The notes under the pieces: model-generated
What the model saw: the letters and a program-made list of their open reading frames with translations, nothing else
What the model was told of the DNA's origin: nothing
Database searches by the model: none
Part shown: positions 11,080 to 53,772 of the stretch, one piece after another
Layout of the letters: each line of letters begins with the position of its first letter
Numbering within the stretch: position 1 is the first letter of the stretch
Source of the DNA: Acidobacteriota bacterium
GTDB taxonomy: Bacteria > Acidobacteriota > UBA890 > WLXD01
Length of the DNA stretch: 64,000 nt
Assembly: GCA_029263335.1 (NCBI GenBank)
Contig: JAJCXS010000038.1
Span: 5,823-69,822 of the forward strand
Direction: 5' to 3'
Position numbers and translations under genes: made by a program

Positions 11080-11108
11080 AATACGCGTGCCGCGACCCCG
11101 GAGTTTCA
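11080..11108 (-). promoter_or_regulatory. Candidate ECF sigma promoter (SigW/SigM-like)
   Basis: Minus strand TGAAACT-N16-CGTATT, about 45 nt upstream of the ATG at 11034. Confidence 0.65.
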
Positions 11109-11151
11109 CCACACCCGACGGATAACCGGGGAGCCTCGGGAGGCGCTGCCC

Positions 11152-13839
11152 TCAGAAGTCGAGTGCGTAGGCCAGGGTGGCGTTGATTCCCAGTCCGTCG
11201 AATCCGGACCCGTGCAGCCGGTAGTTCAGGTCGGTGAAGTTGTTGAGTGCGAAGGTGATGCTCTGGCTGGTGGTGAGCGCGTAGTTGCCGCGGATCCCCA
11301 GGGTGAGCCAACCGGGCGTGGCGGTGAATAGCGCCGCCCCGCTACCTCCGGGACCGAGCACACGCGCGATAACGTCGTCGAGCGTTTCGCCCGTTGCCAG
11401 CAGGATTCCGTTTTCCACGAGGCCCAGACGCGGCCCCTGATTGATGAAGAAATCGCTGATGTCGCCCGCGTCGCGAAAGGCGCCGATACGGGAATCGTCG
11501 AGGTCTGCGGGATTCAAACGACTCTGCCGGGCGGCACCTTTTACCACCCCTTCCAGCCACAGCCGGCCGGAGGCGCCCCGCCAGCGGAGGATCGCGGCGA
11601 GATTGTCCGGGGCGATCTTGCGAGCAAAGAAGCCCGTGTCGAGCTCGGTGCCGCGTTGCATTGATGCCTTCACGGTCGCCAGCCAACGGTCGCCGAACGA
11701 CCTCTGAGCGAGCACTTCGAGACCCCACACGCGCAGCCGGCTGACGTTGATCCGGGATACCACCGCGTTGGGCTCGCCAGCGACGAAGATCCGCCCTTGC
11801 TCGTCCTGCGCAACGATGGTCGCTCCGCCGATCTCTTCGCCGACGACATCTTGTCCGACAATCAAGGTGCGACGGTTGATGTTGTCCCCGAAGTTCGACA
11901 GGAAGCCAGTGAACTCGAAGCGCGTTTCGCGATTGAAGTAGCGAAGCCCGCCCTCGTAGCTCCAGACCTTTTCGGGAGTCAGCGCCTGCCATGGCGCACC
12001 TGCGCTGATGGCAGTAGAACTCGCGGAGTCGCCCACCAGGGCGCCGAAGGCCACGGCTTCGTCCGGCGCTACCTCGAAACCTCCTCCAGTGAGACCGATC
12101 TCGCCAAGATCGAAGATGGACGGAGCACGAAAGCCCCGCGCCACGCGACCCCATACATCCAGCGTGTCCGACAGGGTGTAGTTCGCGCCGAGGTTGAATG
12201 TCAGGTCGGTAAAATTGGCCTCGGTGTCGGGCACCAGCTCCAGGCCGGCGATGACGTTGTCCGCGGCACGCGCGCTGTATGCAAAAGTCGAGAACCGCAC
12301 ACCCCCGGACACGCGGAGCCGCCTGTTGATGGTGGTCCATTCGTCGAGCAGGAAGACACCGAACGACGTGTAGGTGGCGCCGTTCGGAACCCGCGGACGT
12401 ACCGCGTTCGTTACACCGCTGCTGGTTTCCGCGCGCACCGCATCGACCGTGTCGCGATAGACCTCGATGCCGCCCGTTACCAGATGAGTTTCGAGACTCT
12501 TGGAGCCGTTGACCTCGAGACCCCAGACGGTGTCGGAACTTTGCTCGACGCGCAGCGTGCTGGTCGGGCGGCGCTGGTCACGTCGGCCGTCCGTCTGTTG
12601 GTTGAGGGATATCTTGGCCTCGACAAAGGTGTCGGTGAAGAACCGCTCATAGCGGACATAGCCAAAGTTGAGGCGCTGCGGGACGAAGTCGGCGCGTACC
12701 CTGCCATCACCGCCGAGAAGCCGATCGTAGCGGCGCACATCGTTCTGTTGTGAGCTCGTGAAGAAGACGTCGATCGAGCTGCTGAAATCGGTGCGCAGGC
12801 TGCCCTTGGCGACTAGGCCGGTCTGGCCGTAGCCGGTGTCGGCGTAGCGGCTGCCGAACGCGGTGCGTACCTGTTCGTCGGTGAAACCGAGGAATCGGAT
12901 CGTCGCGTGGTGCGAGTCGCGGGCACCGCCGCCGCGAACCTCGCCGTGGCGGGTTGCCGAAGCAGCGAGGAACCCGGCGAGCTTGCCGCTGCTGCCGCCG
13001 ACGGTCGCGTGCAGGCCGCCGCCCACCGAGGCCGACTCGCCAAACGCACGCACGCTACCGCTCATGCGCGAGGTGTTGTCGTTGCTGAACGCGGGCGTGG
13101 GTTTGGTGAGAACGTTGATGGCGCCACCCAGCGCGTCGGAGCCGTAGTTGACTCCCGCGGGTCCGAGCAGTGTCTCGATGGATTCCACGCCAACATCCGG
13201 GATCCAGGCAAGGTACTGGGTGTTACCCGCTCGGTAGGTAGCGTTGTTGTAGCGCACACCATCGATCAGATAGAGCACCGCCTGGGCGCTCTGACCGCGC
13301 AGAATGGGCGACCCCTGACCCGGGGTAGTCTGCTGCGTGAGGATGCCGGGCTCTTCGTCGAGCATGCGTGGCAACAGGTCAACCGCGCGAGCCCGCAACT
13401 GCACCTCGTCGAGGGATCTCACGGTTGCCGGGATCTTGCTCTCGCGCTGTACCGTGCCGCGTGAAGCGGTTACCGTGACGCGCTCCTCGACGCCAATCGG
13501 GTACATCACCATCTCGATGGAGATCGCAGGCGAGCGCACCTCGACAACCTGGTAGACGTCGGTGTAGACATCGCTCAGCACGCGCAGCTCGTAGGTGCCG
13601 TATGGAACCTCATCGAGTACGGCCATGCCTGCCGCATCGCTTTCGGCCTGGCGCATGACCTGGCGGGTCGGGCCGAGAAGCTGCACGATCATCTCAGACA
13701 CGATGTGCCCGTCGCGATTGGTGACGCGAACGGCTACTGTGCCGCTATCAACCGATTGCTCCTGCTGCGCGGCTGTGCGAACCGCTGGCACTAGGGAGAG
13801 GAGCATGACGAGCGCGAACTGGGCAGTCTTGGGGCTCAT
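11152..13839 (-). CDS. TonB-dependent outer-membrane receptor with N-terminal carboxypeptidase-regulatory-like domain
   Basis: Signal peptide, TonB-box-like EERVTVTASR, plug motifs PILRG...LYLIDGVR and YGSDALGGAIN, and C-terminal NFTDLNY...LAYALDF ending in Phe. Confidence 0.9.
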   Translation of the reverse strand: MSPKTAQFALVMLLSLVPAVRTAAQQEQSVDSGTVAVRVTNRDGHIVSEMIVQLLGPTRQVMRQAESDAAGMAVLDEVPYGTYELRVLSDVYTDVYQVVEVRSPAISIEMVMYPIGVEERVTVTASRGTVQRESKIPATVRSLDEVQLRARAVDLLPRMLDEEPGILTQQTTPGQGSPILRGQSAQAVLYLIDGVRYNNATYRAGNTQYLAWIPDVGVESIETLLGPAGVNYGSDALGGAINVLTKPTPAFSNDNTSRMSGSVRAFGESASVGGGLHATVGGSSGKLAGFLAASATRHGEVRGGGARDSHHATIRFLGFTDEQVRTAFGSRYADTGYGQTGLVAKGSLRTDFSSSIDVFFTSSQQNDVRRYDRLLGGDGRVRADFVPQRLNFGYVRYERFFTDTFVEAKISLNQQTDGRRDQRRPTSTLRVEQSSDTVWGLEVNGSKSLETHLVTGGIEVYRDTVDAVRAETSSGVTNAVRPRVPNGATYTSFGVFLLDEWTTINRRLRVSGGVRFSTFAYSARAADNVIAGLELVPDTEANFTDLTFNLGANYTLSDTLDVWGRVARGFRAPSIFDLGEIGLTGGGFEVAPDEAVAFGALVGDSASSTAISAGAPWQALTPEKVWSYEGGLRYFNRETRFEFTGFLSNFGDNINRRTLIVGQDVVGEEIGGATIVAQDEQGRIFVAGEPNAVVSRINVSRLRVWGLEVLAQRSFGDRWLATVKASMQRGTELDTGFFARKIAPDNLAAILRWRGASGRLWLEGVVKGAARQSRLNPADLDDSRIGAFRDAGDISDFFINQGPRLGLVENGILLATGETLDDVIARVLGPGGSGAALFTATPGWLTLGIRGNYALTTSQSITFALNNFTDLNYRLHGSGFDGLGINATLAYALDF

Positions 13840-14015
13840 TGCAGCCAGCGAATGCAGAGTCAGCGGAAGTTGGAATGCCGGTTGGTGGGGCGCCGCCGGC
13901 GCGTCGACCGACGGTAGGGCCAACGCGTACACCTACAAAGCTAACATTTGGGCGCTGCGGCGGCGATGCCAAGAATGCCGGAGCAGCAGGACCTTTCTCA
14001 TCGGGAGTATGGAGA

Positions 14016-14942
14016 ATGACGAACAGAGGATTGCGCGCAGGCGGACGGCACCTGGTGCTGAGCTTGATGGCGTTGTTGCAGGTGTCCGCGGTCTCGGCGG
14101 TGCCGCAGGAGGGCCCCAAGATCTACATATCGGCCGATTTGGAGGGCGTGACCGGGGTTGTGACCGGCGAGCAACTTGGCCCGGGCGGTTTCGAGTACGA
14201 GCGCTTTCGCCGCTTCATGACCGAGGAGGTGCTGGCTGCAATCGAAGGTGCGCGTGCCGCGGGGGCCGGCGAGATCCTGGTGTCGGATTCGCACGGCAAC
14301 GGCCAGAACCTGGTGCTCGAGATGCTGCCCGACGACATCAAGGTCGTGCGCTCATGGCCGCGCGAACTGACGATGATGCACGGGTTGGACGCGAGCTTCG
14401 ACGGTGCCATCTTCATCGGCTACCACGCGGGCACCACCAATCTCGAAGGCGTGCGTGCGCACACGATGTCCAGCGCGTCGCTGACGGATGTGAGAATCAA
14501 CGACCGGTCGTCCAACGAGACGATCTGGAACGCCGCGGTGGCCGGAACCATGGGCGTGCCGGTGATCGCGATCTCTGGCGACGACGCCACCATCGCCGAG
14601 GCCCGGGCAACGCTCGGCACCGGCTTCGAGGCGGCCGTCGTGAAATGGGCTCACTCGTTCCATTCCGCCACGACGGTCACGCCGGCGCGCGGCCAACGGT
14701 TGATTCGTGCGGCGGCGGAGAAGGCTGTGCGCAGTCTTTCCGCGGTGGAGCCGTACGTGGTGAGCACGCCCGTCCGTATCACCGTGCGTTTCAAGAACTA
14801 CCAGCCGAGCATGATGCTGGCCTACTTGCCATGGTTCGACAGGGTCGACGCCCACGCGATCGAGTATGACGCCGACGACATGGTCGCGGCCGCTTCGATA
14901 CTGACTTTCCTGCGCAACTACCGTCCCGACATCACGCCGTGA
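14016..14942 (+). CDS. dppA: D-aminopeptidase DppA family (M55), with signal peptide
   Basis: KIYISADLEG, DSHG, FIGYHA, AHT and NE zinc/catalytic motifs. N-terminal Sec-type signal; RBS GGAG. Confidence 0.85.
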   Translation: MTNRGLRAGGRHLVLSLMALLQVSAVSAVPQEGPKIYISADLEGVTGVVTGEQLGPGGFEYERFRRFMTEEVLAAIEGARAAGAGEILVSDSHGNGQNLVLEMLPDDIKVVRSWPRELTMMHGLDASFDGAIFIGYHAGTTNLEGVRAHTMSSASLTDVRINDRSSNETIWNAAVAGTMGVPVIAISGDDATIAEARATLGTGFEAAVVKWAHSFHSATTVTPARGQRLIRAAAEKAVRSLSAVEPYVVSTPVRITVRFKNYQPSMMLAYLPWFDRVDAHAIEYDADDMVAAASILTFLRNYRPDITP

Positions 14943-14966
14943 GGCTGTCGGTCAGCCGGCGGGCGA

Positions 14967-17342: not shown

Positions 17343-17549
17343 GGGCAGTCGGAACCTGTCTGGAGAAGGAACGAGGCACGGGAAAATGTGCCCCATTCGG
17401 CAGCGACCTGCAAACGCGATGCGGGTGACAGCGCGTGCGGGGCGACCCGTAGGAATGACCGGTCAGGCAGCGGTGATGACGTGATCAGGGGCGGACGCCT
17501 CGTTATGCTAGGGTAACGATTCTTTGTCGGTCCCTGTCCCGGAAGTCCT

Positions 17550-18862
17550 ATGTCCGTGCGACCTTCAGTGACCCCCTTGCTTCGCGCGCTGCAGGCGCGC
17601 GTGCGTAGCAATGTGCTGAGACAAGAGCTGGTCGATGTGCTGATGATCATCAGTGCGAGCGGACTGTTATTGGCGGGCTGGAACGCCACCATGCCGCTCT
17701 CCATGGGAGTGCATTGGGCGTGGTTGCTGCCGATCATTGCCATGGCTGGTGTGCGAGCGGCGACCCGTTTGCGAGTGGCTATCCCGCTGTGGAAGGCGGC
17801 GCGCAGCGCCGACGAGCACGACGCTCTTCAAGACGAAATCATCTCCGCCTACTGGTTCGAGCGGCATCCGCACGAGGACGGCACCTGGGTAGACCTGCAC
17901 GTGTCACGCGCCCAGCACACGGCGTCGGGCCTCGACCCGCAGCGAATCGTGCCCACAAAGAAGCCGAACCGCATGGGCGCGGCGGCAGGCTGCCTGCTGG
18001 GAGCCGTGGCCCTGGTACTGCTGCCGGTACCGCGGGTGTTCGAGCCCATGGTGGACCGCCTGGGCGAGCTGGCGGCCGAGTTCGCCCAGCCCGACAGCGA
18101 CGAACTGCTGGCCGAGTTGCAGGAAACGACGGAGCGCGAAGAGGACCCACTGGACGAGCTCGATCGCCAGGATCGGCTGATGCTGCCGGAGCCGGACGAA
18201 CAGGAATCGGGTGGCCAGAACGCTCTGGAGGAGCAAGAGCCCGCAGGCGAGGGCGAGGAGCCGCCGGAGGACCCCGAGGGGTCCTTCATGGAGGCCGAAG
18301 AGGGCGACGAGGGGGAGCAGGAAGGCGAGCCTCAGGAGATGCAGGTGGACAACCCCGAGGAGTTGCCTGAATCGGAGGGCGAACAGGAGCCCGATCCTAA
18401 CGAGAGTCAGCAGGATGGCCAGGGCGAGTCCACCGAAGAGAGCGGGCAGACGCTGCCTGCCGGCGAAGAAGTTTTCTTGCAGCAAGGCGGCGAAGAAATC
18501 GAACAGATGGAGCTCGGCGAGGAAGAAGTCGGGCATGCGACGCGTGAGGGTGGCGAGGAACTCGAACTCGAGTTGGGCGAACTCGAGACGTTGGAAGTAC
18601 AACTTCAGCGCGAGCTTCTGGCTGCCGAGGACCTCCCAGAGGATCCCGAGGACCCGGCGGAGGAGGAGAAGGAGGAGCTGGTCACCAAGGCCGAGGACTC
18701 TCGCATCGATTTTCGCGAGGTGAGTCGACCCAACGAGGCAGCGCTCCAGGACCTTCTGCAATCCGAGTCGGTGCCGTGGGAGTACCGACAGATCGTGCTG
18801 GCTTACTTCAAGGCCCTGCGCGAACGCGATAACCAGAAAGACGAAGAAGAAGGCAAACGCCC

Positions 18863-18866
<4 letters not shown>
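17550..18866 (+). CDS. Membrane-anchored hypothetical protein with long Glu/Asp-rich region; first gene of MoxR operon
   Basis: N-terminal hydrophobic helices and an acidic low-complexity C-terminal half. The stop overlaps the moxR start (ATGA). Confidence 0.65.
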
Positions 18867-19858
<992 letters not shown>

Positions 19859-25247: not shown

Positions 25248-26084
25248 CTATCGCCTGCGGATCTGTACGGAGCCTTGCAGCGTCTCGATCTGGATCTCGG
25301 CCGACCCGGTGCCGGTGGTGAAGCGCAGTTCCTGCGACGGCAGCCAGCGGCTTTCGCGCCGCGGCTCCTGGCCGAACGCGTTGTCGATGTCGCCCATCAT
25401 GGTCTCGACGTAGAAGTTGGCGGAGATGTCTCCGGGCACGACCAGTTCGATCGAACCGTTGACGTTCTCGATGTCGATCTCGCCGCCATCGATAACGCCA
25501 CCTGTAAAGCTGATCGTGCCGTTCACGCTCTCCAGGTTGGCTTCGCTCACGTTGCCGGCGCTCGCGGTGATCGACCCGGTGACGTTCTCGATGTCGAGCC
25601 TCGTAGCATTGCCGGAATAGGTGATATCGCCGGTGACCGATTCGATCTCGATGACTCCGTCCACGCCCTCGACCTCGAACGTCGCGGTGACCCCTTCGAT
25701 CTCGAGGCTGGCTCCTGCCGGCAAGTGGATCTCGAGGTTCACATCGATATCGTTGTGGTCGCGCCGACGCCAGCGACGACGACCACGATCGTTGTCGTCG
25801 TCATCCCAGTCGCCGAGGTCTACGTAGATCTCCACCGAGTCGGGGCCACCGTCGATCCCAAACTCGTCGACGTCGTCGCCGATGGTGCCAGTGACCGTCA
25901 TCTCGTTGCCGGCGCCGCCGATGATGCGGATGTGCCCGACGATGATGTCCTCGATTTCCACCCGGACCGTGGGTGATACCACCCGCGTGTCGTCGATCTG
26001 CTGCTGGGCCATCGCCGCATTGGGGAGGGCGAGGAGCCCTACCGCGATGACCGCCGCGATGGATGTTCTCTGAACTGCTTTCAT
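25248..26084 (-). CDS. Secreted DUF4097 family beta-strand-repeat protein
   Basis: Signal peptide ending AMA-QQ; repeats IESVTGDI, IENVTGSI, LESVNGTI, IENVNGSI, VETMMGDI and IETLQGSV. Confidence 0.8.
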   Translation of the reverse strand: MKAVQRTSIAAVIAVGLLALPNAAMAQQQIDDTRVVSPTVRVEIEDIIVGHIRIIGGAGNEMTVTGTIGDDVDEFGIDGGPDSVEIYVDLGDWDDDDNDRGRRRWRRRDHNDIDVNLEIHLPAGASLEIEGVTATFEVEGVDGVIEIESVTGDITYSGNATRLDIENVTGSITASAGNVSEANLESVNGTISFTGGVIDGGEIDIENVNGSIELVVPGDISANFYVETMMGDIDNAFGQEPRRESRWLPSQELRFTTGTGSAEIQIETLQGSVQIRRR

Positions 26085-26127
26085 TGTCCGTCTCCGTTCA
26101 GTCGTTTGAGTGTCTGGCGATGAGCCC

Positions 26128-26721
26128 TTACAGGCGACTCATGCCTTCCAGAAAATTCACCCTCGTTCGGTACATATCGGTCAGCTTGCCGACCAGCTTG
26201 CGGTTTGCCGGATCTCTTTCCAGCGCAGCACGGGCTTCGGTGATCGCCTCGTCGATGAGGCGCAGGTTGGTCTCGACGATCTCGATGGTTTCCGGCGCCA
26301 GCTCGTCGCGCTGCGCGTCGAGGGAGGCCATCAGATCGTCGGTGATGTTCTGATAGGAACGTTCGGCCTGCAAAAAGCCGTTCCAGGCAACGGCCTCAAA
26401 TTCGGTAAGAGCCGGCGAGGAGGTTCCGTCGGCGGGTGCCGCCGGCGAGCGTACGAGATAGGCGGTAATACCCGAGGAGAACGCCACCAGGAGCATTGCC
26501 GCGGTGGAGATCAGACCCACGCGGCGCCAATTCACTCCGGCCGCTGCCGGTACGGGCTCATGGCGGTCCGCCGAGAAGTCTGGCCGCACGATCTTGGCAT
26601 CGCTGATGGCGCTTTCAATGCCTGCCCACAGGTCGCGTTCGGGCTGGATCTCGCGCGGCAGTGTCTCGATGCGGTTCTTCATTTCCTCACCCAGCTCTTC
26701 GTTCCGTTCGTCATGCGTCAT
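26128..26721 (-). CDS. Putative single-pass anti-sigma factor (no zinc motif)
   Basis: Overlaps the ECF gene. Has an N-terminal P-x-R-D-L-W-x-x-I segment, one TM helix and a helical periplasmic part. Confidence 0.65.
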   Translation of the reverse strand: MTHDERNEELGEEMKNRIETLPREIQPERDLWAGIESAISDAKIVRPDFSADRHEPVPAAAGVNWRRVGLISTAAMLLVAFSSGITAYLVRSPAAPADGTSSPALTEFEAVAWNGFLQAERSYQNITDDLMASLDAQRDELAPETIEIVETNLRLIDEAITEARAALERDPANRKLVGKLTDMYRTRVNFLEGMSRL

Positions 26722-27277
26722 GGCCTAGCGCCTCCCGCAGTAGTCGTCTTGCCCGGTGTAGTTGCGCCTTGCAGGTGCCTGGCGCGATGCCCATGAGATC
26801 GGCGATCTCTTGGTGCTGATATCCCTCGATGTCGTAGAGCACGAACACCTCGCGCGCCCGCTCCGGCAGCTGAGCGATGGCAGCATCGAGGTCGACGGTC
26901 GGCCCGCGGTTGGTGCGATCGCCGGTGGTGGCGTGATACGACATGTCATCCTGATGAACTGTGCGCTCGCGCTCGCGCGCCAGCTTGCGTCGGCGGCTGA
27001 GTACGACGTTGGCCGCGACCCGATGCATCCAGGTCGAGAAACTCGCTGCCCCGCGGAAGGTGTCGAGCTTCTGCCACGCCCGGATGAACGCCTCCTGGGT
27101 AAGCTCCTCCGCCTCGGCGACGTTGGCCGTCATACGGAGGCACAGGGCGTAGATGCGCCCGAGGTTGGCCGCGTAGAGGTCCTCGAAGGCGCTGGTATCG
27201 CCGCCAGCAGCGCGGGCGACGAGTTCGGCCGCTTCGTCGTTGTTCAACGCGATACTTCCGCTGGGCGATACCTGCAT
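26711..27277 (-). CDS. ECF RNA polymerase sigma factor (ECF1)
   Basis: AEELTQEAFIRAW, FSTWMHRVAAN, LPERAREVFVL, EIADLMG and KAQLHRAR. Confidence 0.93.
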   Translation of the reverse strand: MQVSPSGSIALNNDEAAELVARAAGGDTSAFEDLYAANLGRIYALCLRMTANVAEAEELTQEAFIRAWQKLDTFRGAASFSTWMHRVAANVVLSRRRKLARERERTVHQDDMSYHATTGDRTNRGPTVDLDAAIAQLPERAREVFVLYDIEGYQHQEIADLMGIAPGTCKAQLHRARRLLREALGHDA

Positions 27278-27313
27278 TGCGATCCCTGAAGAGTCATGTG
27301 GGGTTTCGCATAC

Positions 27314-27341
27314 TTAGATAGTGCCCAGGGCCTCAAGGTTT
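27314..27341 (-). promoter_or_regulatory. Candidate RpoE-like promoter of ECF1 operon
   Basis: Minus strand AAACCTT-N16-TCTAA, about 36 nt upstream of the ATG at 27277. Confidence 0.45.
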
Positions 27342-40684: not shown

Positions 40685-40713
40685 TCTACGGCCGCCCGGC
40701 CGCCCAAGTTTCG
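40685..40713 (-). promoter_or_regulatory. Candidate ECF promoter (proximal)
   Basis: Minus strand CGAAACT-N16-CGTAGA. Confidence 0.65.
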
Positions 40714-40726: not shown

Positions 40727-40755
40727 CAGACGCCGAAACGCGGCCGGAAGTTTCA
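40727..40755 (-). promoter_or_regulatory. Candidate ECF promoter (distal)
   Basis: Minus strand TGAAACT-N16-CGTCTG. Confidence 0.65.
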
Positions 40756-40825
40756 TCCGGCGGGTCAATAGGTCGTGACCGAGTGCGCCGGAATCTTGTC
40801 TCGATCGCCTAACCGACGGTGCCGT

Positions 40826-41419
40826 ATGCCCGTCTTACACACAGACATGGACAACAGCCTTCCCGAAGTCATAGCCCGCGCACAGGCGGGAGAAGAAGAG
40901 GCCTTCCGCATGCTCGTAGAGCAGCACAGTCGCAATGTGTTCAACGTGGCCTACCGCATTGTAGGTAACTCCGCAGACGCCGAAGAGGCAGTGCAGGAGA
41001 CGTTCCTGAAGGTCTTCAAGCGTCTGGGCAGCTTCGAAGAGCGCGCACGTTTTACGACATGGCTGTACCGCGTGGCGGCCAACGCCGCGATGGATGTTGT
41101 TCGCAGGCGGCAGCGGCACGCCACCCGCGAGGCTGTCCTCGAGGATCAGGAGGGGCAGCTCCTCCCGTTCGCGGCGGAGGCGCCCGGGCCCGAGCGCGAA
41201 GCAGAGGGTGGAGAGATTTCGGACCACATCTCGGCGGCGATGGATCGACTGACCCCGGGGGAGCGCGCGGCCTTCACGTTGCGCCATCTGCAAGGGCTGT
41301 CGATCAGGGAGATCGGCGAGGCGCTCGACATGCAGAGCAACGCCGTGAAGAACTCGATTTTCCGAGCAGTTCAAAAGATGCGGCGCGAACTCGCGCCGTT
41401 TGCGAGAGAGACGTCATGA
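40826..41419 (+). CDS. ECF RNA polymerase sigma factor (ECF2)
   Basis: AEEAVQETFLKVF, FTTWLYRVAANAAMD, LTPGERAAFTLR and VKNSIFRA. Confidence 0.93.
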   Translation: MPVLHTDMDNSLPEVIARAQAGEEEAFRMLVEQHSRNVFNVAYRIVGNSADAEEAVQETFLKVFKRLGSFEERARFTTWLYRVAANAAMDVVRRRQRHATREAVLEDQEGQLLPFAAEAPGPEREAEGGEISDHISAAMDRLTPGERAAFTLRHLQGLSIREIGEALDMQSNAVKNSIFRAVQKMRRELAPFARETS

Positions 41420-42195
41420 AGCATCCGAACGAACAGGAAATAGTCATGTCGATGCTCGGCGACGGGGATGACGCCGGGGGCATCCAGGCCCATCTGGAGG
41501 AGTGCGCCGAGTGTCGTGCGCAGGTAGCCGACATTGAACGGCTCCTGGCCGTCACGGCGGAGCTGGAGGTGCCCGAGCCCGATGCCGGCTTCGAGGCGCG
41601 CATCTGGGAGCGGCAGCAGGTACAGCTGCGGCAGGCAGCGCGCCAAGAGCGCGAAGCTCAGGTGGAATCGGCGACGGTGATCCCCTTCTGGACGTTGCGG
41701 CGCCTGGCCCCGGTTGGTGCCATGGCAGCGATGTTGTTGGTCGCGTTCATGGTCGGTCTCTACAGTTCGCCACCGGGGACGGAAATCGTGCCTGAAGGCA
41801 GCGCCCCGAGCGGTGACAGGGTGCTCTTCGTCGCCGTCGGTGACCATCTGCAGAGCGCCCGCATGGTGTTGGTCGAATTGGTCAACGCCGAGGGTAACGA
41901 GAGCGTGGACATCTCGGCCCAGCAGGAGCGCGCGCAGACGTTGTTGGCCAACAATCGACTCTATCGCCAGACCGCCCAGCTGAACGGGCAGGCCAGCGTG
42001 GCCGATGTGCTGGGAGATCTGGAGAGAGTTCTTCTCGAGGTCGCGCGAACCTCGGGGGAGGTGCCGGCCGAGGAACTCGACTGGCTGCGTGAGCGGATCG
42101 CATCCCGCGATCTGCTGTTCAAAGTAAGTGTGATTGAAGGACAGACCCGACGAGCCGCGACCGCGGACGCCGGTGACCCAACGGCAACGTTGTGA
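41416..42195 (+). CDS. Zinc-binding (ZAS) anti-sigma factor, single TM helix
   Basis: ATGA overlap with the ECF2 stop. N-terminal His plus HLEECAEC (HxxxCxxC), then one TM helix. Confidence 0.85.
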   Translation: MKHPNEQEIVMSMLGDGDDAGGIQAHLEECAECRAQVADIERLLAVTAELEVPEPDAGFEARIWERQQVQLRQAARQEREAQVESATVIPFWTLRRLAPVGAMAAMLLVAFMVGLYSSPPGTEIVPEGSAPSGDRVLFVAVGDHLQSARMVLVELVNAEGNESVDISAQQERAQTLLANNRLYRQTAQLNGQASVADVLGDLERVLLEVARTSGEVPAEELDWLRERIASRDLLFKVSVIEGQTRRAATADAGDPTATL

Positions 42196-42206
42196 GGAGA
42201 AACGAA

Positions 42207-43481
42207 ATGCGAATCGAACGAGTTCTGCGAATCGGCATCGTGGTAATCGGCGCCGTCGTGGCGCTGCCCCTGGCCGCCCAGCAACGCACCGCGGTGCCGA
42301 CGTCGGAAGCCAGGGCACCGCTGCCCCCTGTGTCCGGGCAGGTCAATGAGGCTTACGACGAGGCCACCGTGGCTTTGGACCGCGGCGACTATGCGCGCGC
42401 CATCGCACTGTTCTCCGAAATCGCCAACGGGCAGGGCGATCGTGCCGACGCCGCTCTGTATTGGGTCGCGTATGCGCAGCAACGACAGGGCGACCGCGCC
42501 GGAGCCGTGAACACGCTCGGCATTCTGCGTCGGGAGTTTCCCGACAGTGCATGGCTGGATGATGCCGACCATCTGGTAGCCGAGATTCAGGGTGCCAGCG
42601 GCCGCGTGCGGGGCGCTCCTCGTGCCGACGAAGACAAGGCCGAGGACATTCGGCTCTATGCGCTCAACGCGCTCATGCACGTCGACGCCGAGAGGGCCGT
42701 GCCGCTGCTCGAGCGCATGATTCGCAGCGATGAGCCGGCGAAGATTCGCCAACGTGCCCTGTTTGTCCTGCTGCAGGCGCACGGCGACGAGGCCTTCGAA
42801 TTGATCGCCGACGTGGCCCGGGACGATTCCGAGCCGGAGATGCGGACCTATGCGCTGCGACATCTGGGGATGTTCGGCGGAGAGAGGGCCGCTGCGCTCA
42901 TGGATGAGATCTACCGGCAGTCGGACGATACCGAGGTCAAGCAGGCCATCATCGCCGGCTACATGATGAACGGCGGCACCAAGAAGCTCTACGAGATTGC
43001 CAAGAGCGAGCCGGTGCAAGAGCTTCGTGTCGTCGCTATTCGTCATCTCGCGATGTCGGGTGGTGCGGACGAGCTCTGGGAGCTGTACGAGAGTGAGAGC
43101 TCCGTCGAGGCGCGAAAAGCGATCCTGGGAGCGGTCTTCATGACCGGAGACTCCTCGCGCTTGCTCCAGGTGGCACAGACCGAGTCCGACATCGAGCTGC
43201 GACGGGCCGCGATCCGCGGTCTGGGCATGGTTCGTCACCGAGGCGAGGGGTCGGGGGGCGATTTGGCGATGGCGCTGCTCGATCTGTATCGCACCAATGA
43301 CGATGTCGAGCTTCGCGAGGCCGTGCTGAACGCGCTGTGGATGCGCGGCGAGGCACGTCCATTGATCGGACTCTACGAAGAGACCGACGATCCGGATCTC
43401 CGGCGACGTATCGTTCAGGCACTATCGATGGTGAATGACGAGGAGGCGGTCGCCTTCCTCATTCGCATCATCGAGCAGTAG
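42207..43481 (+). CDS. Secreted TPR + HEAT-repeat protein
   Basis: Signal peptide; TPR-like GDYARAIALF...ALYWVAYAQ...FPDSAW; about seven HEAT-like units. RBS GAGGAG. Confidence 0.75.
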   Translation: MRIERVLRIGIVVIGAVVALPLAAQQRTAVPTSEARAPLPPVSGQVNEAYDEATVALDRGDYARAIALFSEIANGQGDRADAALYWVAYAQQRQGDRAGAVNTLGILRREFPDSAWLDDADHLVAEIQGASGRVRGAPRADEDKAEDIRLYALNALMHVDAERAVPLLERMIRSDEPAKIRQRALFVLLQAHGDEAFELIADVARDDSEPEMRTYALRHLGMFGGERAAALMDEIYRQSDDTEVKQAIIAGYMMNGGTKKLYEIAKSEPVQELRVVAIRHLAMSGGADELWELYESESSVEARKAILGAVFMTGDSSRLLQVAQTESDIELRRAAIRGLGMVRHRGEGSGGDLAMALLDLYRTNDDVELREAVLNALWMRGEARPLIGLYEETDDPDLRRRIVQALSMVNDEEAVAFLIRIIEQ

Positions 43482-43485
43482 GGAA

Positions 43486-44631
43486 ATGCTGTCGAAGTAC
43501 GCCAGGGTGGCAGTCGCCAGCCTGGTCCTGGGAATCAGCCTCGCGGTTTCGGCCACGACACCTCAGCAGCAGGTTGGGCAGGGCCGAGAAGGCGGGGAAC
43601 CGCGTGGAGTCAAGCACGCCGACCTCGAGCAGCGCGCCTTGTCGGGTGACCTGGGCGCGACGATTGGTGACGCCGGCGGCAGCGCGGGCGTCGCATGGGT
43701 CGGGTACAGCGTACCGGCGGTACACGACGGCGGGTCCATGTGCTGCCACTGGAGGGATGACGAGGGCAGCGACCGTTGCGGAGTCTGTCGACTCGGACGG
43801 CGTGGCGCCTACTCCGATGACGAGGGCTCCGATCACGTGGGCGATGATCACGACGACGGGGTCCTCCTCGACGAGGATGGGCGCGTTCGCGTCTTCGTGC
43901 GCGTCGAAGACGGGAAGATCAGTCGCATCCAGTCGTTCTCGTCGCGCTGCGTGATCGACGCCGGCGGCGCACGAGTTGCCTGGCTGCGGGAGGTGAGCGG
44001 AGCGGCGAGCGCCGAGTGGTTGGCCACGATCGTAGAAGACCGCTTCGGCGGCGAGCGCTCCGACAAGGCGGTCGAAGGTGCGCTCTCGGCGCTGGCGATG
44101 CACGATGGCACCGCCGCTCTCAGTCTGCTCGAGGAGTGGGCGACGGGGCGTCACCCGCGCAAGCTCCGGGAACAGGCGATCTTCTGGCTCGGCGCGGCAC
44201 GTGGGGCCGAGTCATGGACAACGCTGGTGCAGCTCGTGACCGACGCGCCCGACCGGGCGATTCGCGCCCGCGCCGTGTTCGCCTCCTATGTTGCGAAGCA
44301 GCCGGGGACCGTGGACCTGCTGATCGGCGTGGCGCGGAACGACGATGCCACGTCGGTGCGGCGCTCGGCCTTGATGTGGCTCGCACAGCTTGCCGGAGAG
44401 CGCGCGATCGAGGCGATTCAGGCTGCGCTCGATGATCCCGACACCGACGTCAAGCGGCATGCCGTGTTTGCGCTCAGTCAGCTCCCAGCCGATCGAGGCG
44501 TGCCGTTGCTGATCGCCATCGTGCGCGAGAACCCGAACCCGGAGGTTCGCAAGCAGGCGCTGTTCTGGCTCGGACAAACAGGGGATGAGCGGGCGCTCGA
44601 ACTCATCGAGGAGTTGCTGGTCGGGGCCTGA
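43486..44631 (+). CDS. Secreted HEAT-repeat protein with Cys-containing N-terminal domain
   Basis: Signal peptide; CCHW...C..C...C; HEAT units LREQAIFWLG, VRRSALMWLA, VKRHAVFALSQ and VRKQALFWLG. Confidence 0.75.
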   Translation: MLSKYARVAVASLVLGISLAVSATTPQQQVGQGREGGEPRGVKHADLEQRALSGDLGATIGDAGGSAGVAWVGYSVPAVHDGGSMCCHWRDDEGSDRCGVCRLGRRGAYSDDEGSDHVGDDHDDGVLLDEDGRVRVFVRVEDGKISRIQSFSSRCVIDAGGARVAWLREVSGAASAEWLATIVEDRFGGERSDKAVEGALSALAMHDGTAALSLLEEWATGRHPRKLREQAIFWLGAARGAESWTTLVQLVTDAPDRAIRARAVFASYVAKQPGTVDLLIGVARNDDATSVRRSALMWLAQLAGERAIEAIQAALDDPDTDVKRHAVFALSQLPADRGVPLLIAIVRENPNPEVRKQALFWLGQTGDERALELIEELLVGA

Positions 44632-45072: not shown

Positions 45073-45132
45073 TGCTCTTACTCGCTTGTGCGGTTGTTGT
45101 CCAAAGTCTATGGCGTAGTTATACAAAACTTC

Positions 45133-45181: not shown

Positions 45182-45188
45182 TTGAGCC

Positions 45189-48493: not shown

Positions 48494-49059
48494 GGCCGGC
48501 GCAGGGGCGCGGCCGCGATGCGTCCCGGGCCGTGTCCGAGCTTGAGACTGGCGACGCACCGTTCGATCAGCGCGGTGACCTCCGAGTAGCGCTCGGCGTA
48601 GTGGGCCCACACGAGAATGTAGGGCACGCCCCGGTGTACCAGCACGACCCGCCGTCGCTGAATTCTGCCCGCGACGGAACCGCGAACGGCCAGCGAGGAG
48701 TGCACCTCGATGCCGTTGATTACCGTCCAGCCCTCCTCGATGATCTCGTCGTCGGCGCTGATCGTGGCGAACAGGTCGTTGATGGCATTGTGGGCCTGAC
48801 TGGCAGGCGCGTCCGGGTCGAGCGCCGATTCCCGGTCACTCATTACGGTGAAATGCGGAAACCCGTCGTTGGCCCCGATGAAGTACAGCAGGATGGTGGG
48901 GCCGCGCATGAAGCCGATCTTCCAGAGGCTCGGCCGGTCGACCACGAGGCCGTCCTCGCCGATCTCGACAGCTACGGTCGGTTCCTCCGAGCCGTCCTGG
49001 GCAGGCACCGGAACAGCCCAGCAGAGCAGGGCGACGAGGACGAACATTCTCAACTTCAT
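48490..49059 (-). CDS. Secreted hypothetical protein
   Basis: Signal peptide ending VPA-QD; coupled to the acylase by a GTGA overlap; TATCCT lies 6 nt before the ATG. Confidence 0.65.
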   Translation of the reverse strand: MKLRMFVLVALLCWAVPVPAQDGSEEPTVAVEIGEDGLVVDRPSLWKIGFMRGPTILLYFIGANDGFPHFTVMSDRESALDPDAPASQAHNAINDLFATISADDEIIEEGWTVINGIEVHSSLAVRGSVAGRIQRRRVVLVHRGVPYILVWAHYAERYSEVTALIERCVASLKLGHGPGRIAAAPLRRP

Positions 49060-49071
49060 GGGCCGAGGATA

Positions 49072-49099
49072 CGACTTTTCCGGTTGACCGGGACTCTAA
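49072..49099 (+). promoter_or_regulatory. Candidate RpoE-like promoter of Spy-like gene
   Basis: CGACTTT-N16-TCTAA, about 50 nt upstream of the ATG at 49149. Confidence 0.4.
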
Positions 49100-49148
49100 T
49101 TGCTTAAGAGAAGGCCGAGTTCCCAACCTGACCTGGAGGTCGTTGCTC

Positions 49149-50144
49149 ATGTTGTCGAAAACCATCGGAAGTCGTCTGGCCCTTGCCGCCGTTGTCTCGG
49201 TGGCGGTTGTGGCCCTGATGGCGGCGTCGGTCGGGACGGTGCAGGCCGTCGCCGCGCAGGATCAGCAGGAAGACGAGAAAGCGAGTCAGAGCGAACAGGA
49301 GCGAGAGCTGCGTAGCAAGCACCGCGAGCGGCGCGCGCGCGGAGAGCTGGAGCTTCACGTTGCCCGCGAGGCGTTACAGAGAGCGCGCGAGATGGGCGGA
49401 CAGGGAAGGCTCCGCATGGTGCAGGAGCTGCGCCAGCGCGATTGGGCGCCAGGCGTCGAATACCGCCGGTTGGGTTCCCGTTTTGGTGGCGGCATGGCCG
49501 ATCGCGTGCTCGCCCGGGCCGAGGAAATCGAGCTCACCGACCAGCAGGAAACGCAGATCCGCGACGCGCGACGCGCCCAGCGACGGGCCGAGATCGAGCG
49601 TGATGCGCAGATCGAAGTGCTCGACCTCGATTTGGAGGAACTGCTCGAGGACCGTCACACGGCGGACCTCAACGCCGTCGAGGCCGTCATGCAGCAGCGC
49701 GCCAGCCTGCGTGTGCAGGGGCAGGTCGCAGACATGCGTGCCTCGCAGGGCGTCTGGAACGTTCTCACCAGCGAGCAGCAGAAGGATTTCGAGGAAGGAC
49801 GCCACAGCTTCTTCGTGCGCCGAGGTGACCGACCGCACGCCATGTTCTTTGACGGCGAAGGAGGGGACATCGTCTTCGATGGCGGGGATTTCGAAGTCGG
49901 CGATTTCGAGTTCGGTGAGCTGTTCAACGATCTCCACCTCGAGGGTCTGGAAGGGCTCGATGGCCTCAAGGGGCTCTTGGAGCTGAAGTCGGAGGGCGGC
50001 GGCCCGTTCATGTTTCGCTACAAGATGAAGCCGGACGAGGATGCCGACGAGGATGCAGAAAAGAAGAAAAAGGAAAAGGGCAGCACCGAGGGCACGGCAG
50101 TCGGTGTTTCCTGGGCGGGACAATCGACGCGCACGATGAAGTGA
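49149..50144 (+). CDS. Spy/CpxP-like (LTXXQ motif) periplasmic protein with extensions
   Basis: Signal peptide; IELTDQQ and VLTSEQQ motifs flank a helical hairpin. RBS GGAGG. Confidence 0.7.
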   Translation: MLSKTIGSRLALAAVVSVAVVALMAASVGTVQAVAAQDQQEDEKASQSEQERELRSKHRERRARGELELHVAREALQRAREMGGQGRLRMVQELRQRDWAPGVEYRRLGSRFGGGMADRVLARAEEIELTDQQETQIRDARRAQRRAEIERDAQIEVLDLDLEELLEDRHTADLNAVEAVMQQRASLRVQGQVADMRASQGVWNVLTSEQQKDFEEGRHSFFVRRGDRPHAMFFDGEGGDIVFDGGDFEVGDFEFGELFNDLHLEGLEGLDGLKGLLELKSEGGGPFMFRYKMKPDEDADEDAEKKKKEKGSTEGTAVGVSWAGQSTRTMK

Positions 50145-50175
50145 GCGCAGCCGCATAGCGACGAAGCAGTCGCTG

Positions 50176-50216
50176 ACGGCCCGGGTCGCAATCCTCCGCA
50201 GACCCGGGCCGTTTTC
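50176..50216 (+). terminator. Intrinsic terminator
   Basis: ACGGCCCGGGTC...GACCCGGGCCGT followed by TTT. Confidence 0.8.
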
Positions 50217-50259
50217 TGTTGCGCCGACGGAGGCCGCGCCGCTGGTGTATACCCCGAGC

Positions 50260-51582
50260 ATGAGCAGTGCCGAGTTGCCGCTAGGTCGCCGTTTCGCGCG
50301 GCTGGCCGTCCCCAACATCATCTCCAACGTCACGGTCCCGCTCGTCGGTCTGGTGGACACGGCGATGCTGGGCCACTTGCCTGATATCTCGTTTCTGGCG
50401 GGTGTGGCACTGGGCGCGGTGATCTTCGACTACGCCTACTGGTCATTTGGCTTCTTGCGCATGGGTACGACCGGGGTGACGGCCCAGGCGGTGGGTCGGG
50501 ATGACCACGCCGAGGTATGGCAGATCCTGTACCGGTCGCTGCTGGTCGCGCTGGCGATCGCCGCGCTCCTGCTGATCAGCCAACGGCTGATCGCCTACCT
50601 GGGATTCTCGGTGCTGGCAGGGCAGGGCAGCGTGGAGGCTGCTGGTCGCGACTATTTCTTCGGCCGCATCTGGGGTGCTCCCGCTACCCTCTCCAACTAC
50701 GTACTACTCGGATGGCTGCTGGGCCGGGAACGCGCGCGTGAGGCGCTCATCATCACGGTGGTTGGCAATCTCGCGAATGTCGGACTGGACTATCTGTTCA
50801 TCATGCGACTCGGCATGGCCGCGGCTGGTGCCGGCGTGGCCACGGCGCTTAGTCAGTACTTGATGCTGGCGACAGCCGTGGCCCTCATCCTGCGCGAAGG
50901 AGGGCCGGCGCCCTTCAGGTCGCAGGCGGTCTTCGATCGGGCCCGGCTCGGCGAGTTGTTCCGTCTCAACCGCGACATCCTGGTGCGGACCGTCATGTTG
51001 ATGACGACGTTCGCCGTATTCACGAACTTCAGCGCGATCATCGGGACCGGGATCCTTGCCGCGAACACGATTCTTTTCCGCTTCCAGATGCTGGGCTCAT
51101 ACCTGATCGATGGAGCGGCCTTTGCCACCGAGAGCCTGGCCGGCATCTACAAGGGGCGGGGCGACGTTGCCGGCCTGCGGCGACTGCTGCGGCTGGCCAT
51201 GTTTACCGGTGTGGCGTTCGCATTGCCCGTGCTGGCTCTCATGTTCGGCGTGCCCGACTGGCTGTACGGCACGATGACCTCGCATGCTGACGTCGCGGCG
51301 CTGGCGTGGCGTTACAGTTGGTGGATGATCCCGGTCGTCCTGCTGGGCGCCGTCGCCTTTATCTACGACGGCTTCTTCATCGGCCTCACGGAGGGCAGAG
51401 TGCTGCGCAACCAGATGCTGATCAGCGCCTTGCTGTTCTATTTGCCGCTGGCGACGCTGGGTCTGTGGCAGGGCAACAACGACGTTCTCTGGCTGGCCAT
51501 GGCGATATTCATGGCGGGCCGCTGTCTGACGATGTGGCTCGCCGAGCGGCGTGTTCTGGTGGAATTGGAGCAGGCGAGATGA
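50260..51582 (+). CDS. dinF: MATE family efflux transporter (DinF-like)
   Basis: LAVPNIISNVTVPLVGLVDTAMLGHL, FLRMGTTG and DILVRT; about 12 TM helices. Confidence 0.9.
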   Translation: MSSAELPLGRRFARLAVPNIISNVTVPLVGLVDTAMLGHLPDISFLAGVALGAVIFDYAYWSFGFLRMGTTGVTAQAVGRDDHAEVWQILYRSLLVALAIAALLLISQRLIAYLGFSVLAGQGSVEAAGRDYFFGRIWGAPATLSNYVLLGWLLGRERAREALIITVVGNLANVGLDYLFIMRLGMAAAGAGVATALSQYLMLATAVALILREGGPAPFRSQAVFDRARLGELFRLNRDILVRTVMLMTTFAVFTNFSAIIGTGILAANTILFRFQMLGSYLIDGAAFATESLAGIYKGRGDVAGLRRLLRLAMFTGVAFALPVLALMFGVPDWLYGTMTSHADVAALAWRYSWWMIPVVLLGAVAFIYDGFFIGLTEGRVLRNQMLISALLFYLPLATLGLWQGNNDVLWLAMAIFMAGRCLTMWLAERRVLVELEQAR

Positions 51583-52088
51583 GCAACCGGCGGCTGCATG
51601 TGGTTCTGGTGGAGCCGGAGATCCATGGCAACACGGGTAATGCGGGCCGCACCTGTCTGGCGACGGGTGCGCAGCTACATCTGGTGGAGCCCCTGGGCTT
51701 CGAGTTGACCGATTCGCGGGTGAAGCGCGCCGGACTCGATTATTGGCCGCGTGTCGATCCGCGGGTGTGGCCGAGCTGGGGGGAGTTCGCACCGCGAATT
51801 CATGAGTTCGGTGAACCGTGGTTCTTCACGGCCGAGGCCGAGCGCGAGTATTGGGATGTGGAGTATCCGGACGATACAGTCCTGGTCTTTGGCAAGGAGT
51901 CGGTGGGCCTGGATTCCCGCATTCGCGACGCTCACCGCGACCGACGGGTGCGGTTTCCCATTCACGATCCGTCGGTCCGTTCGCTGAATCTCGCCAACTG
52001 TGTAGCCCTGGCCTGCTACGAAGTTCTGCGGCAGCGAACCCTGCCAGCTACTGGATTTGCGACAAGGCCTGTTCGAGGTCGGCGATGA
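51579..52088 (+). CDS. trmL: tRNA (cytidine/uridine-34-2'-O)-methyltransferase
   Basis: EPEIHGNTGN, LVEPLGF, KRAGLDYW, FGKESVGL and RSLNLAN. ATGA overlap with the MATE stop. Confidence 0.92.
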   Translation: MSNRRLHVVLVEPEIHGNTGNAGRTCLATGAQLHLVEPLGFELTDSRVKRAGLDYWPRVDPRVWPSWGEFAPRIHEFGEPWFFTAEAEREYWDVEYPDDTVLVFGKESVGLDSRIRDAHRDRRVRFPIHDPSVRSLNLANCVALACYEVLRQRTLPATGFATRPVRGRR

Positions 52089-53211
52089 GATCTTCCGCCG
52101 CTTCCACGCCGACGGACATGCGAATCAGGCCGTCGGTCACGCCTGCCGCCGCGCGCTCTTCGGCGCTCATGCCGACATGTGAGGTTTCGGCGGGGATGGT
52201 CATCAGCGTCTCGAGCCCGCCCAGGCTGGGCGCTACGAGAGGAATGCGAACGAGGTCCTGCACCCGGTGAGCGGCTTCTCGGCCACCCTCCACCTCGAAG
52301 CTCAACATGCCGCTGAAGCCATCGAGCAGGCGGCTCGCGGTGGCGTGATACACGCTCGAATCGAGACCCGGGTAGTGGACCGCGACGACCCGTGGGTGCT
52401 GTTCGAGAGCCTCCGCGATGCGGATGGCGTTGCTGTTGTGCCGCTCCATGCGCAGCGGCAACGTCTTGATGCCGCGGTGCAGCAAGAAACACGCGTGCGC
52501 GTCGAGCGAGCCGCCGAGGTGGTTGACGCGATGGCGGACGGCCTCGATCCGGTCGACGCTACCGATGACCGCGCCGGCGATCAGATCGGTGTGGCCATTC
52601 AGGTACTTCGTGGCCGAGTGTAGCGACAGGTCGAAACCGTGCTCGATAGGTCGGAAGTTCACCGGCGAGGCGAAGGTGTTGTCAATCATCGAAACGAGAC
52701 CGTGTTCGCTCGCGAACGCCGCGAGCGCGTCGAGTTCGCCGACCTTGACGAGCGGGTTGGTGAGAGTCTCGGCGTAAAGCACCTTGGTGTTCGGGCGCAG
52801 CAGTGCTTTCCAGTGGTCGGGCTGCGCGGCGTCGAAAACAGACACCTCGACGCCGAGGGCGGGCAGGTCGCGGTGCACCACCATGTGGGTGCCGCCGTAC
52901 AGCGAATCCTGTACCAACACATGGTCGCCCTGTTGGAGGAAGGTCAGGAGACTGCTGGAGATCGCCGCCATGCCGCTCGCGGTCACCAACGCGTCCGCCG
53001 CGTTTTCGAGGGCGGCCAACTTGCCGTGGATAACGTCGTGAGTCGGTGTGTTGCTGAGTCGCGCGTAGTGAACGTCGTCGTAGGCGGAATCCCCTTCGAA
53101 CAGGAACGTCGACGACTGATAGATCGGTGCAACGGCCGCTCCCGCAGGGCGCGGGTCGGGTTCGCCGGCGTGGATCGCCTTGGTCTGCATGCTGGCACTG
53201 TGGTCGGCCAC
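52048..53211 (-). CDS. PLP-dependent Cys/Met metabolism enzyme (cystathionine gamma-synthase/lyase or methionine gamma-lyase family)
   Basis: PIYQSSTF, YARLSNTP, ASGMAAI, DNTFASP, HSATKYLNGH (PLP Lys) and SLGGLETL. Confidence 0.9.
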   Translation of the reverse strand: MADHSASMQTKAIHAGEPDPRPAGAAVAPIYQSSTFLFEGDSAYDDVHYARLSNTPTHDVIHGKLAALENAADALVTASGMAAISSSLLTFLQQGDHVLVQDSLYGGTHMVVHRDLPALGVEVSVFDAAQPDHWKALLRPNTKVLYAETLTNPLVKVGELDALAAFASEHGLVSMIDNTFASPVNFRPIEHGFDLSLHSATKYLNGHTDLIAGAVIGSVDRIEAVRHRVNHLGGSLDAHACFLLHRGIKTLPLRMERHNSNAIRIAEALEQHPRVVAVHYPGLDSSVYHATASRLLDGFSGMLSFEVEGGREAAHRVQDLVRIPLVAPSLGGLETLMTIPAETSHVGMSAEERAAAGVTDGLIRMSVGVEAAEDLIADLEQALSQIQ

Positions 53212-53221
53212 GATCTTCTCC

Positions 53222-53689
53222 TCAGCCCTGCAGGGCGGTCAGGCGCTTGTGGACGTGGGCGGCGTGGCCCTTGGCGTTGGCGCGCTTCCAGCGATGGGCA
53301 ACCACGCCATCCGGTCCGATGATCACCGTCGATCGGGTTACGCCGATCATCTTTCGTCCGTAAAGGGTCTTTTCGCCCCAGGCACCGTAGGCTTCCATCA
53401 CCGAGTGGTCTTGGTCAGCCAGGAGGCCGACCTCCAAGGCGTACTTGGCGATGAACTGGCGATGCGACTCTGGGGAGTCGGGGCTGCAGCCGTATACGAC
53501 GGCGCCCATGCCTACGAAGTCTTTGATCGAGTCGGTGAACTCGCACGCTTCGATGGTGCAGCCCGGCGTGTCATCGGCCGGGTAGAAGTACAGGACGACC
53601 CATCTCCCCGCCAGATCGTCCAGGCTCACCGGGGTGCCGTCCTGGTCAGGGAGCGTGAAGGACGGTGCCATGCTGCCAATCTCGATCAA
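53222..53689 (-). CDS. bcp: Peroxiredoxin Q / bacterioferritin comigratory protein
   Basis: YFYPADDTPGCTIEAC (CxxxxC), GCSPD and YGAWGEK. Confidence 0.92.
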   Translation of the reverse strand: MIEIGSMAPSFTLPDQDGTPVSLDDLAGRWVVLYFYPADDTPGCTIEACEFTDSIKDFVGMGAVVYGCSPDSPESHRQFIAKYALEVGLLADQDHSVMEAYGAWGEKTLYGRKMIGVTRSTVIIGPDGVVAHRWKRANAKGHAAHVHKRLTALQG

Positions 53690-53743
53690 CCTGTTGCTCC
53701 TGTCTTTGACTACAATTCTGGTCGCCGGGCCGCCACGACCGAT

Positions 53744-53772
53744 TGAAACCCCGGGACCGTTCAGGGCGTCTC
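53744..53772 (+). promoter_or_regulatory. Candidate ECF promoter
   Basis: TGAAACC-N16-CGTCTC, about 41 nt upstream of the ATG at 53814. Confidence 0.65.

Follow-up and report, generated by a model that had tools for sequence, protein, structure and literature searches.

A probable ECF-type promoter set with SigW-like consensus and its candidate sigma factors in an uncultured lineage of Acidobacteriota

In a 64,000-nucleotide stretch of contig JAJCXS010000038.1 (assembly GCA_029263335.1) of an Acidobacteriota bacterium, hereafter called the window, four bipartite sites of the form (T/C)GAAAC(T/C)-N16-CGT(A/C) stand before three transcription units. The sites are very probably promoters dependent on an extracytoplasmic function (ECF) sigma factor, because they are under selection and are identical to the class of promoters experimentally defined in Bacillus subtilis for SigW and related ECF sigma factors. 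The three units encode the toastrack-like protein P0001 (site 1), the acidic exported paralogs P0002 and P0003 with two tandem promoters (sites 2 and 3) and the orphan permease ADOP1 (site 4), and the set is a well supported, ordinary small ECF regulon in an uncultured lineage. The organism itself is uncultured and derives from a biofilm metagenome.

According to the mechanism proposed, the reader of the sites would be a sigma factor of the ECF type (group 4) with SigW-like specificity, which recognizes a -35 element GAAAC(T/C) and a -10 element CGT(A/C) separated by a spacer of 15-16 nt. The small regulon would comprise the toastrack-like protein, the bicistronic acidic pair and the ADOP permease as three transcription units and would be conserved among uncultured Acidobacteriota within a clade of family rank. 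Upon release of the sigma factor from its anti-sigma factor, RNA polymerase carrying it would initiate transcription some 10 nt beyond the final base of the -10 element, to give 5' untranslated regions of roughly 35-90 nt. The predicted transcription start sites are located at ~11072-11073 for the P0001 promoter, with the predicted flipped base of the -10 element at 11082, at ~40719 and ~40677 for the distal and the proximal promoter of the paralog pair, and at ~53780 for the ADOP1 promoter, which is divergent from a bcp (AhpC/TSA) gene.

Placement and conservation of the four sites

A pattern search recovered all four sites where the earlier note on this DNA had located them, intergenic, correctly oriented and with a 16-nt spacer (Table 1). 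In the window, YGAAACY-N16-CGTM has 4 matches with 0.33 expected, and a count of 4 was reached in 0 of 100 shuffles. This pattern was fitted post hoc to the sites and the unfitted core GAAAC-N17-CGT was therefore tested too. The core has 5 matches in the window, an overall count not above that of other spacings; four of the five are intergenic, correctly oriented and less than 150 nt from a start codon, a combination which, on a gene map made from open reading frames (ORFs) and Pfam matches, applies to 2.5% of the strand-positions of the window (binomial P ~2e-6). Among all spacings between 10 and 25, 17 is the only one at which the core motif has oriented upstream matches in the window. Seen from the -35 element, six GAAAC pentamers occupy oriented upstream positions and CGT follows at exactly N17 in four of them. 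The distance from CGT to the start codon amounts to 48, 55, 97 and 44 nt for sites 1 to 4, respectively. The fifth match to the core (4055, plus strand) was dropped, as was a GAAC-N17-CGTC match (5689, minus strand), both being located in coding sequence.

With respect to conservation, the relatives compared are uncultured Acidobacteriota, the loci of which are labelled L001-L025 and L099-L100. The motif is found before the P0002 orthologues in 7/7 genomes (50-84% protein identity), before 6/6 independent P0001 orthologues (L008-L014; 43-77%) and before 3/3 syntenic ADOP1 orthologues (L015-L017; 70-79%). In the case of P0001, it takes the form (T/C)GAAAC(T/C)-N15/16-CGTA at 40-78 nt from the start and, in the case of ADOP1, the form (T/C)GAAACC-N16-CGTC. 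Upstream of the paralog pair, where sites 2 and 3 are arranged in tandem 42 nt apart, both copies are present in six of the seven relatives: the distal copy, ~97 nt from the ATG, is kept as TGAAAC(T/C)-N15/16-CGT(C/T) in all seven, and the proximal copy, ~55 nt from the ATG, as (C/T/G)GAAAC(T/C)-N15/16-CGTAG in six, being degenerate in L007. The earlier note had proposed to look for the sites upstream of orthologues, and at each of the three loci they are indeed there.

While the motif is invariant, the pairwise identity of spacer plus flank in the relatives is only 0.24-0.42 (0.30-0.35 for the spacers). Outside of the known sites, the background is ~10 matches in ~230 kb of related loci, equivalent to ~3e-3 per 150-nt region. 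As judged from this comparison, the sites are under purifying selection as bipartite, oriented elements of fixed spacing, because the footprint is conserved, spacers and flanks are nearly randomized and the background rate is low. From motif, placement, orientation and conservation we infer promoter function. As the earlier note had recognized, the sites match the SigW/SigM-type consensus; in sequence and geometry they equal the class defined experimentally in B. subtilis for SigW, SigX, SigM and SigV, in which TGAAAC is followed, after a spacer of 16 nt, by CGTA or CGTC (PMC5758882).

Some observations weigh against this interpretation. The alignments were anchored on the motif, such that its 100% identity is partly circular and the counts of presence and absence are the real test. 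The region is present in four metagenome DNA runs and in zero RNA runs. Furthermore, an ECF gene with an autoregulatory GAAAC-N16-CGT copy was found neither in the window nor in the ~230 kb of related loci, and L001-L019 and L099-L100 hold no further regulon member or sigma factor gene with the motif.

That the sites are no promoters at all, but transcription factor binding sites or a chance or repeat element, is nevertheless highly improbable. They are bipartite with a fixed gap of 16-17 nt and a free spacer, strictly oriented at 36-110 nt from start codons, conserved across genomes and identical to a well-characterized promoter class, and neither dyad symmetry nor a repeat family was seen at the sites. 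A terminator, an Rfam family or a repeat element that would account for the four sites was not found, nor was a sigma-70-like promoter in the three upstream regions.

Table 1. Sites, genes and operons of the window
Feature	Position	Strand	Description	Basis
Site 1, P(toastrack)	11082-11108	-	TGAAACT-N16-CGTA	pattern search
Site 2, proximal tandem promoter of the paralog pair	40687-40713	-	CGAAACT-N16-CGTA(G)	pattern search
Site 3, distal tandem promoter of the paralog pair	40729-40755	-	TGAAACT-N16-CGTC	pattern search
Site 4, P(ADOP1)	53744-53770	+	TGAAACC-N16-CGTC	pattern search
Target gene 1, P0001	10387-11034	-	215 residues, exported, toastrack/DUF4097-like beta-solenoid, monocistronic	translation, AlphaFold 2
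Target gene 2a, P0002	40051-40632	-	193 residues, acidic, exported, signal peptide ending ...AQAQ	translation
Target gene 2b, P0003	39520-40047	-	175 residues, paralog of P0002 (26% identity)	translation, alignment
Target gene 3, ADOP1	53814-56264	+	816 residues, duplicated MacB_PCD/FtsX orphan permease, monocistronic	Pfam
ECF2 operon	40847-44631	+	divergent from the paralog pair	Pfam, synteny
ECF2 own promoter	40809-40837	+	CTAACC-N16-CGTCTTA	footprint
ECF2 sigma factor	40847-41419	+		Pfam
ECF2 anti-sigma factor	~41419-42195	+	HxxxCxxC, single transmembrane segment	translation
ECF2-operon TPR/HEAT protein	42192-43481	+		Pfam
ECF2-operon HEAT protein	43435-44631	+		Pfam
ECF1 operon	25248-27340	-	range includes the promoter	Pfam
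ECF1 own promoter	27314-27340	-	RpoE-like, AACCTT-N16-TCTAA, -10 TATCTAA	pattern search
ECF1 sigma factor	26711-27277	-		Pfam
ECF1 anti-sigma factor	26128-26721	-		Pfam
ECF1-operon DUF4097 protein	25248-26084	-		Pfam
One-mismatch copy of the ECF1 motif	49073-49099	+	GACTTT-N16-TCTAA, before LTXXQ/Spy-like gene 49143-50144	

Sigma factors that may read the set

The earlier note had placed all three loci, spread over 43 kb, under a single ECF sigma factor, most plausibly ECF2. The footprints at the orthologues uphold one conserved set, but the preference for ECF2 is not supported, as the promoter of the ECF2 operon itself is of a CCTAACC class. In the intergenic region between ECF2 and the paralog pair, CTAACC-N16-CGTC(Y)(W)A is the strongest footprint, present in 8/8 genomes with unrelated spacers, and ECF2-like operons of 45-48% identity (L020-L025) retain CCTAACC-N16-(G/A)TCTAAT, among them L023, which displays the full layout of sigma factor, anti-sigma factor, TPR/HEAT and HEAT protein genes without the paralog pair. 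The ECF2 operon appears to be self-activating. On comparative grounds, CCTAACC is the cognate -35 element of the ECF2 family, because the own promoter is invariant in the orthologues and retained at 45-48% identity and because residue and base co-vary.

This co-variation concerns the residue aligned with Asn84 of RpoE, a position that reads the bases -13/-12; promoter base -34 is a specificity position connected with RpoE Ser172 (Todor et al., 2020, PMC7776599). In L020-L025, the residue tracks base -12, with Asp accompanying TGTCTAA (L020, L021, L025) and Ala or Glu accompanying TATCTAA (L022-L024), which is the expectation for an autoregulatory promoter and may be regarded as a small natural example of the ECF specificity code. 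The same position is occupied by Asp in ECF2 (8/8) and SigW and by Ser in ECF1, and the relation of residue 84 to base -12 behaved well over ~50 metagenome ECF sigma factors, where CGT is accompanied by Asp84 and CAT by Met84. At the position of RpoE Ser172, on the other hand, Asn is found in ECF2, Gln in the distant ECF2 relatives, Thr in SigW and Ala in ECF1; a residue-172 rule to predict base -34 proved too noisy over the ~50 metagenome ECF sigma factors (Thr with G, T or A) to provide more than a weak argument. Both reference sequences of the residue alignment, RpoE and SigW, were verified against 1or7 and 5wuq.

In the ECF2 promoter, 13 nt separate the end of the -10 element CGTC (40830-40833) from the ATG, which is not preceded by a Shine-Dalgarno sequence. 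As suggested by sequence comparison, the mRNA of ECF2 probably has no leader or hardly any, because the short distance between -10 element and ATG holds throughout the relatives, with 11-14 nt in all ECF2 orthologues and the 45%-identical relatives. In one long-read metagenome-assembled genome (L006:7263-7824), the ECF2 orthologue is frameshifted after ~60 residues with both promoters intact; either the assembly is wrong at this point or the gene is a pseudogene.

ECF2 is a candidate regulator of the four sites through its divergent synteny and the matching -10 element. That it reads all four sites, with CCTAACC-N16-CGTC as an autoregulatory variant that is highly selective and different by design, is a tentative proposition, consistent with the divergent arrangement of ECF2 and the paralog pair, which is kept in 8/8 genomes, and with the geometry AAC-N17-CGT common to the ECF2 promoter and the sites, two of which also share its CGTC. 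The sites have an invariant CG at -13/-12, which goes with Asp at the RpoE Asn84 position in SigW, ECF2 and other ECF sigma factors. SigW is moreover among the best NCBIfam models of ECF2, though below the cutoff: with the SigW model PRK09641, ECF2 scores 126.5 bits and ECF1 106.6 bits with a cutoff of 209, which characterizes both as generic ECF sigma factors. B. subtilis, too, has autoregulatory promoters unlike those of the regulon, and its promoters of SigX (TGTAAC) and SigW (TGAAAC) are separated mainly by the -10 element (PMC5758882).

The assignment to ECF2 is weakened, however, because its own footprinted promoter differs from the targets at -35/-34. TAAC is found in 14/14 own promoters of the ECF2 family and GAAAC in ~27 orthologous target sites, with zero crossover, and the two motifs are distinguished at -34, a specificity position, ECF sigma factors being reportedly very sensitive to single-base changes (PMC7776599). 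CGTA never occurs in the ECF2 own promoter, and the extended ECF2 motif with up to 2 mismatches matches only itself in the window. Genomic linkage points both ways: the pair is divergent from ECF2 in 8/8 close genomes, P0001 and ADOP1 are located 30 and 13 kb from ECF2, and in distant relatives the pair is unlinked, with an ECF2-like operon that lacks the pair (L023) and a homologue of the pair that lacks an adjacent ECF gene (L100). This distant P0002 homologue (43% identity) is preceded by a loose TGAACC-N18-CGTA only and is uninformative on the co-variation of sigma factor and motif.

About equally likely, and held just as tentatively, is that a SigW-like ECF sigma factor encoded outside of the window reads all four sites, with the adjacency of ECF2 reflecting functional coupling and not direct control. 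Each of the two ECF sigma factors of the window has its own distinct motif, conserved or recurring, and in L018 an ADOP1-like gene stands beside a disrupted ECF gene (Ala172/Asp84) with an anti-sigma factor and a PDZ protease. An autoregulatory copy of the motif was, though, seen neither in the window nor in the related loci, and the conserved back-to-back placement of the pair with ECF2 would stay unexplained.

The fourth base of the -10 element brings in a further alternative, as it is fixed by locus. All 7 toastrack promoters read CGTA, as do the proximal paralog promoters wherever one was found (7 genomes, the window included); CGTC is present in 4/4 ADOP1 promoters, and CGTC or CGTT in 8/8 distal paralog promoters. 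Of these variants, CGTA is selective for SigW in B. subtilis and CGTC is common to several ECF sigma factors (PMC5758882). Two sigma factors might thus share the set, with the CGTC promoters read by ECF2 or by both and the CGTA promoters by a SigW-like ECF sigma factor, an unlikely arrangement with which the constant CGTC in the -10 element of ECF2, the B. subtilis parallel and the retention of the tandem promoters 42 nt apart in 6/7 relatives would agree. It is read purely from the sequence pattern, however, the data are explained as well by one sigma factor acting on promoters of tuned strength, and the -35 mismatch with ECF2 holds for the CGTC sites too. Equally doubtful is the corollary that the tandem paralog promoters form an OR gate which joins the pathway of ECF2 with its HEAT sensor to a second, SigW-like envelope-stress pathway; if true, this would be a Bacillus-style network of overlapping ECF sigma factors that evolved independently in Acidobacteriota.

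In the case of ECF1, motif and residues argue against a role in reading the four sites, and it would come as a surprise if it read them. Its own -35 element CAAACC shares AAACC with the sites, including the A at -34, and its operon contains a DUF4097 protein as target gene 1 codes for a toastrack-like one. Yet its own -10 element is TATCTAA and not CGT, it has Ser and not Asp at the RpoE Asn84 position that reads -13/-12 (PMC7776599), and its motif (AACCTT-N16-TCTAA type, 2 matches in the window with 0.14 expected) recurs before the LTXXQ gene instead. As regards the ECF groups to which the two sigma factors might be assigned, the main text of Casas-Pastor et al. (2021) is without detail on motifs or HEAT context.

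Relation to known systems and products of the target genes

In B. subtilis, the yvlABCD operon is SigW-dependent. The set shares with the SigW regulon the promoter consensus and envelope-protein targets that include a DUF4097 protein (YvlB/LiaG class; PMC9239133), and in both systems the autoregulatory promoter differs from the regulon promoters. Distinct from B. subtilis are the phylum, Acidobacteriota being diderm, and the ADOP permease and the acidic paralog pair as targets without a Bacillus counterpart; furthermore, the ECF sigma factors of the window score below the cutoff of the curated SigW model, by which the set does not qualify as the regulon of a SigW orthologue. Escherichia coli RpoE (sigmaE) promoters, GGAACTT-N16-TCTAA/TCAAA, have the same bipartite AAC-N17/19 architecture as the four sites. 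The ECF1 promoter (AACCTT-N16-TCTAA) and in part that of ECF2 (CGTC-Y-W-A) are closer to this class than the sites, which combine GAAAC with CGT(A/C) and are devoid of the TCnAA extension.

Small 'local' ECF regulons with targets near the sigma factor gene are common (Todor et al., 2020, PMC7776599). Our analysis follows the same logic of specificity code and phylogenetic footprinting as that study (PMC7776599), but here the motif footprinted at the targets disagrees with the one footprinted at the own promoter of the neighbouring sigma factor gene. In this clade, the ECF2 operon has a divergent exported pair attached, the promoters of which are of a different class. Adjacency to an ECF gene is thus no sufficient ground for placing promoters under the control of its product, because the own footprinted promoter of the neighbour ECF2 is of a different class. 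On the other hand, the set provides a seed motif, backed by conservation, from which regulons may be predicted in an uncultured lineage of Acidobacteriota, and a single response, presumably to envelope stress as in the B. subtilis systems, would link three uncharacterized components of the envelope: the toastrack protein P0001, the family of acidic exported paralogs, for which no relative by fold was detected, and the orphan permease ADOP1.

P0001, which has two invariant Cys residues, had been called DUF4097-like in the earlier note. This description holds at the level of the fold and not by Pfam, which gave no family at E<=0.01, DUF4097 (PF13349) included; an NCBIfam match to LiaG is faint (E 0.009). 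The AlphaFold model (predicted local distance difference test, pLDDT, 87.7) has its best Protein Data Bank (PDB) match in 4qrk (E 2.2e-13, template modelling score 0.53), followed by 3pet, 3jx8, 3lyc and 4opw, and the predicted structure is, at the level of fold, that of a beta-solenoid of the DUF4097-type 'putative adhesin' structures. In one relative only (L008:2011-2922), a DUF481 outer-membrane gene is located between the TonB receptor gene and the toastrack gene; the ECF-type promoter is still found directly before the P0001 orthologue despite this insertion. In the window, no ORF with a Pfam match occupies the ~1 kb between the genes for the TonB-dependent receptor and a sulfatase (13933-14966), and a 424-residue ORF at 13595-14869 (plus strand) has no match.

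The regulation of the ADOP permease family is otherwise ascribed to PadR. The motif is missing only before the ADOP1-like gene of L018, which is out of synteny, truncated at its N-terminus and next to a transposase gene. At this locus of a 4.36-Mb relative (L018:900-2500), the permease (68% identity) abuts a DDE transposase, and beyond the transposase follow an ECF1-like sigma factor fragment (Ala172/Asp84), an anti-sigma factor and a PDZ protease, which looks like a divergent ECF/permease locus disrupted by an insertion sequence.

P0002 has 57 homologues, all unnamed. A DUF7545 match in Pfam is below threshold, and its AlphaFold 2 model reaches a pLDDT of 65.6 only, with nothing below E 0.04 in a Foldseek comparison with the PDB. 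P0003 starts 4 nt downstream of P0002, an arrangement syntenic in 7/7 relatives as is the six-gene module around the pair and ECF2, and the two genes are probably co-transcribed. An inverted repeat GAAAC...GTTTC inside the distal site was considered as an operator and rejected, as it is not conserved in the relatives. In L003, L005 and L007 (~7846-7885), the -35 elements of the ECF2 promoter and of the distal paralog promoter stand back to back, ~4-5 nt apart (GGTTAGGCACGTGAAACC), such that two holoenzymes would sit directly adjacent to each other.

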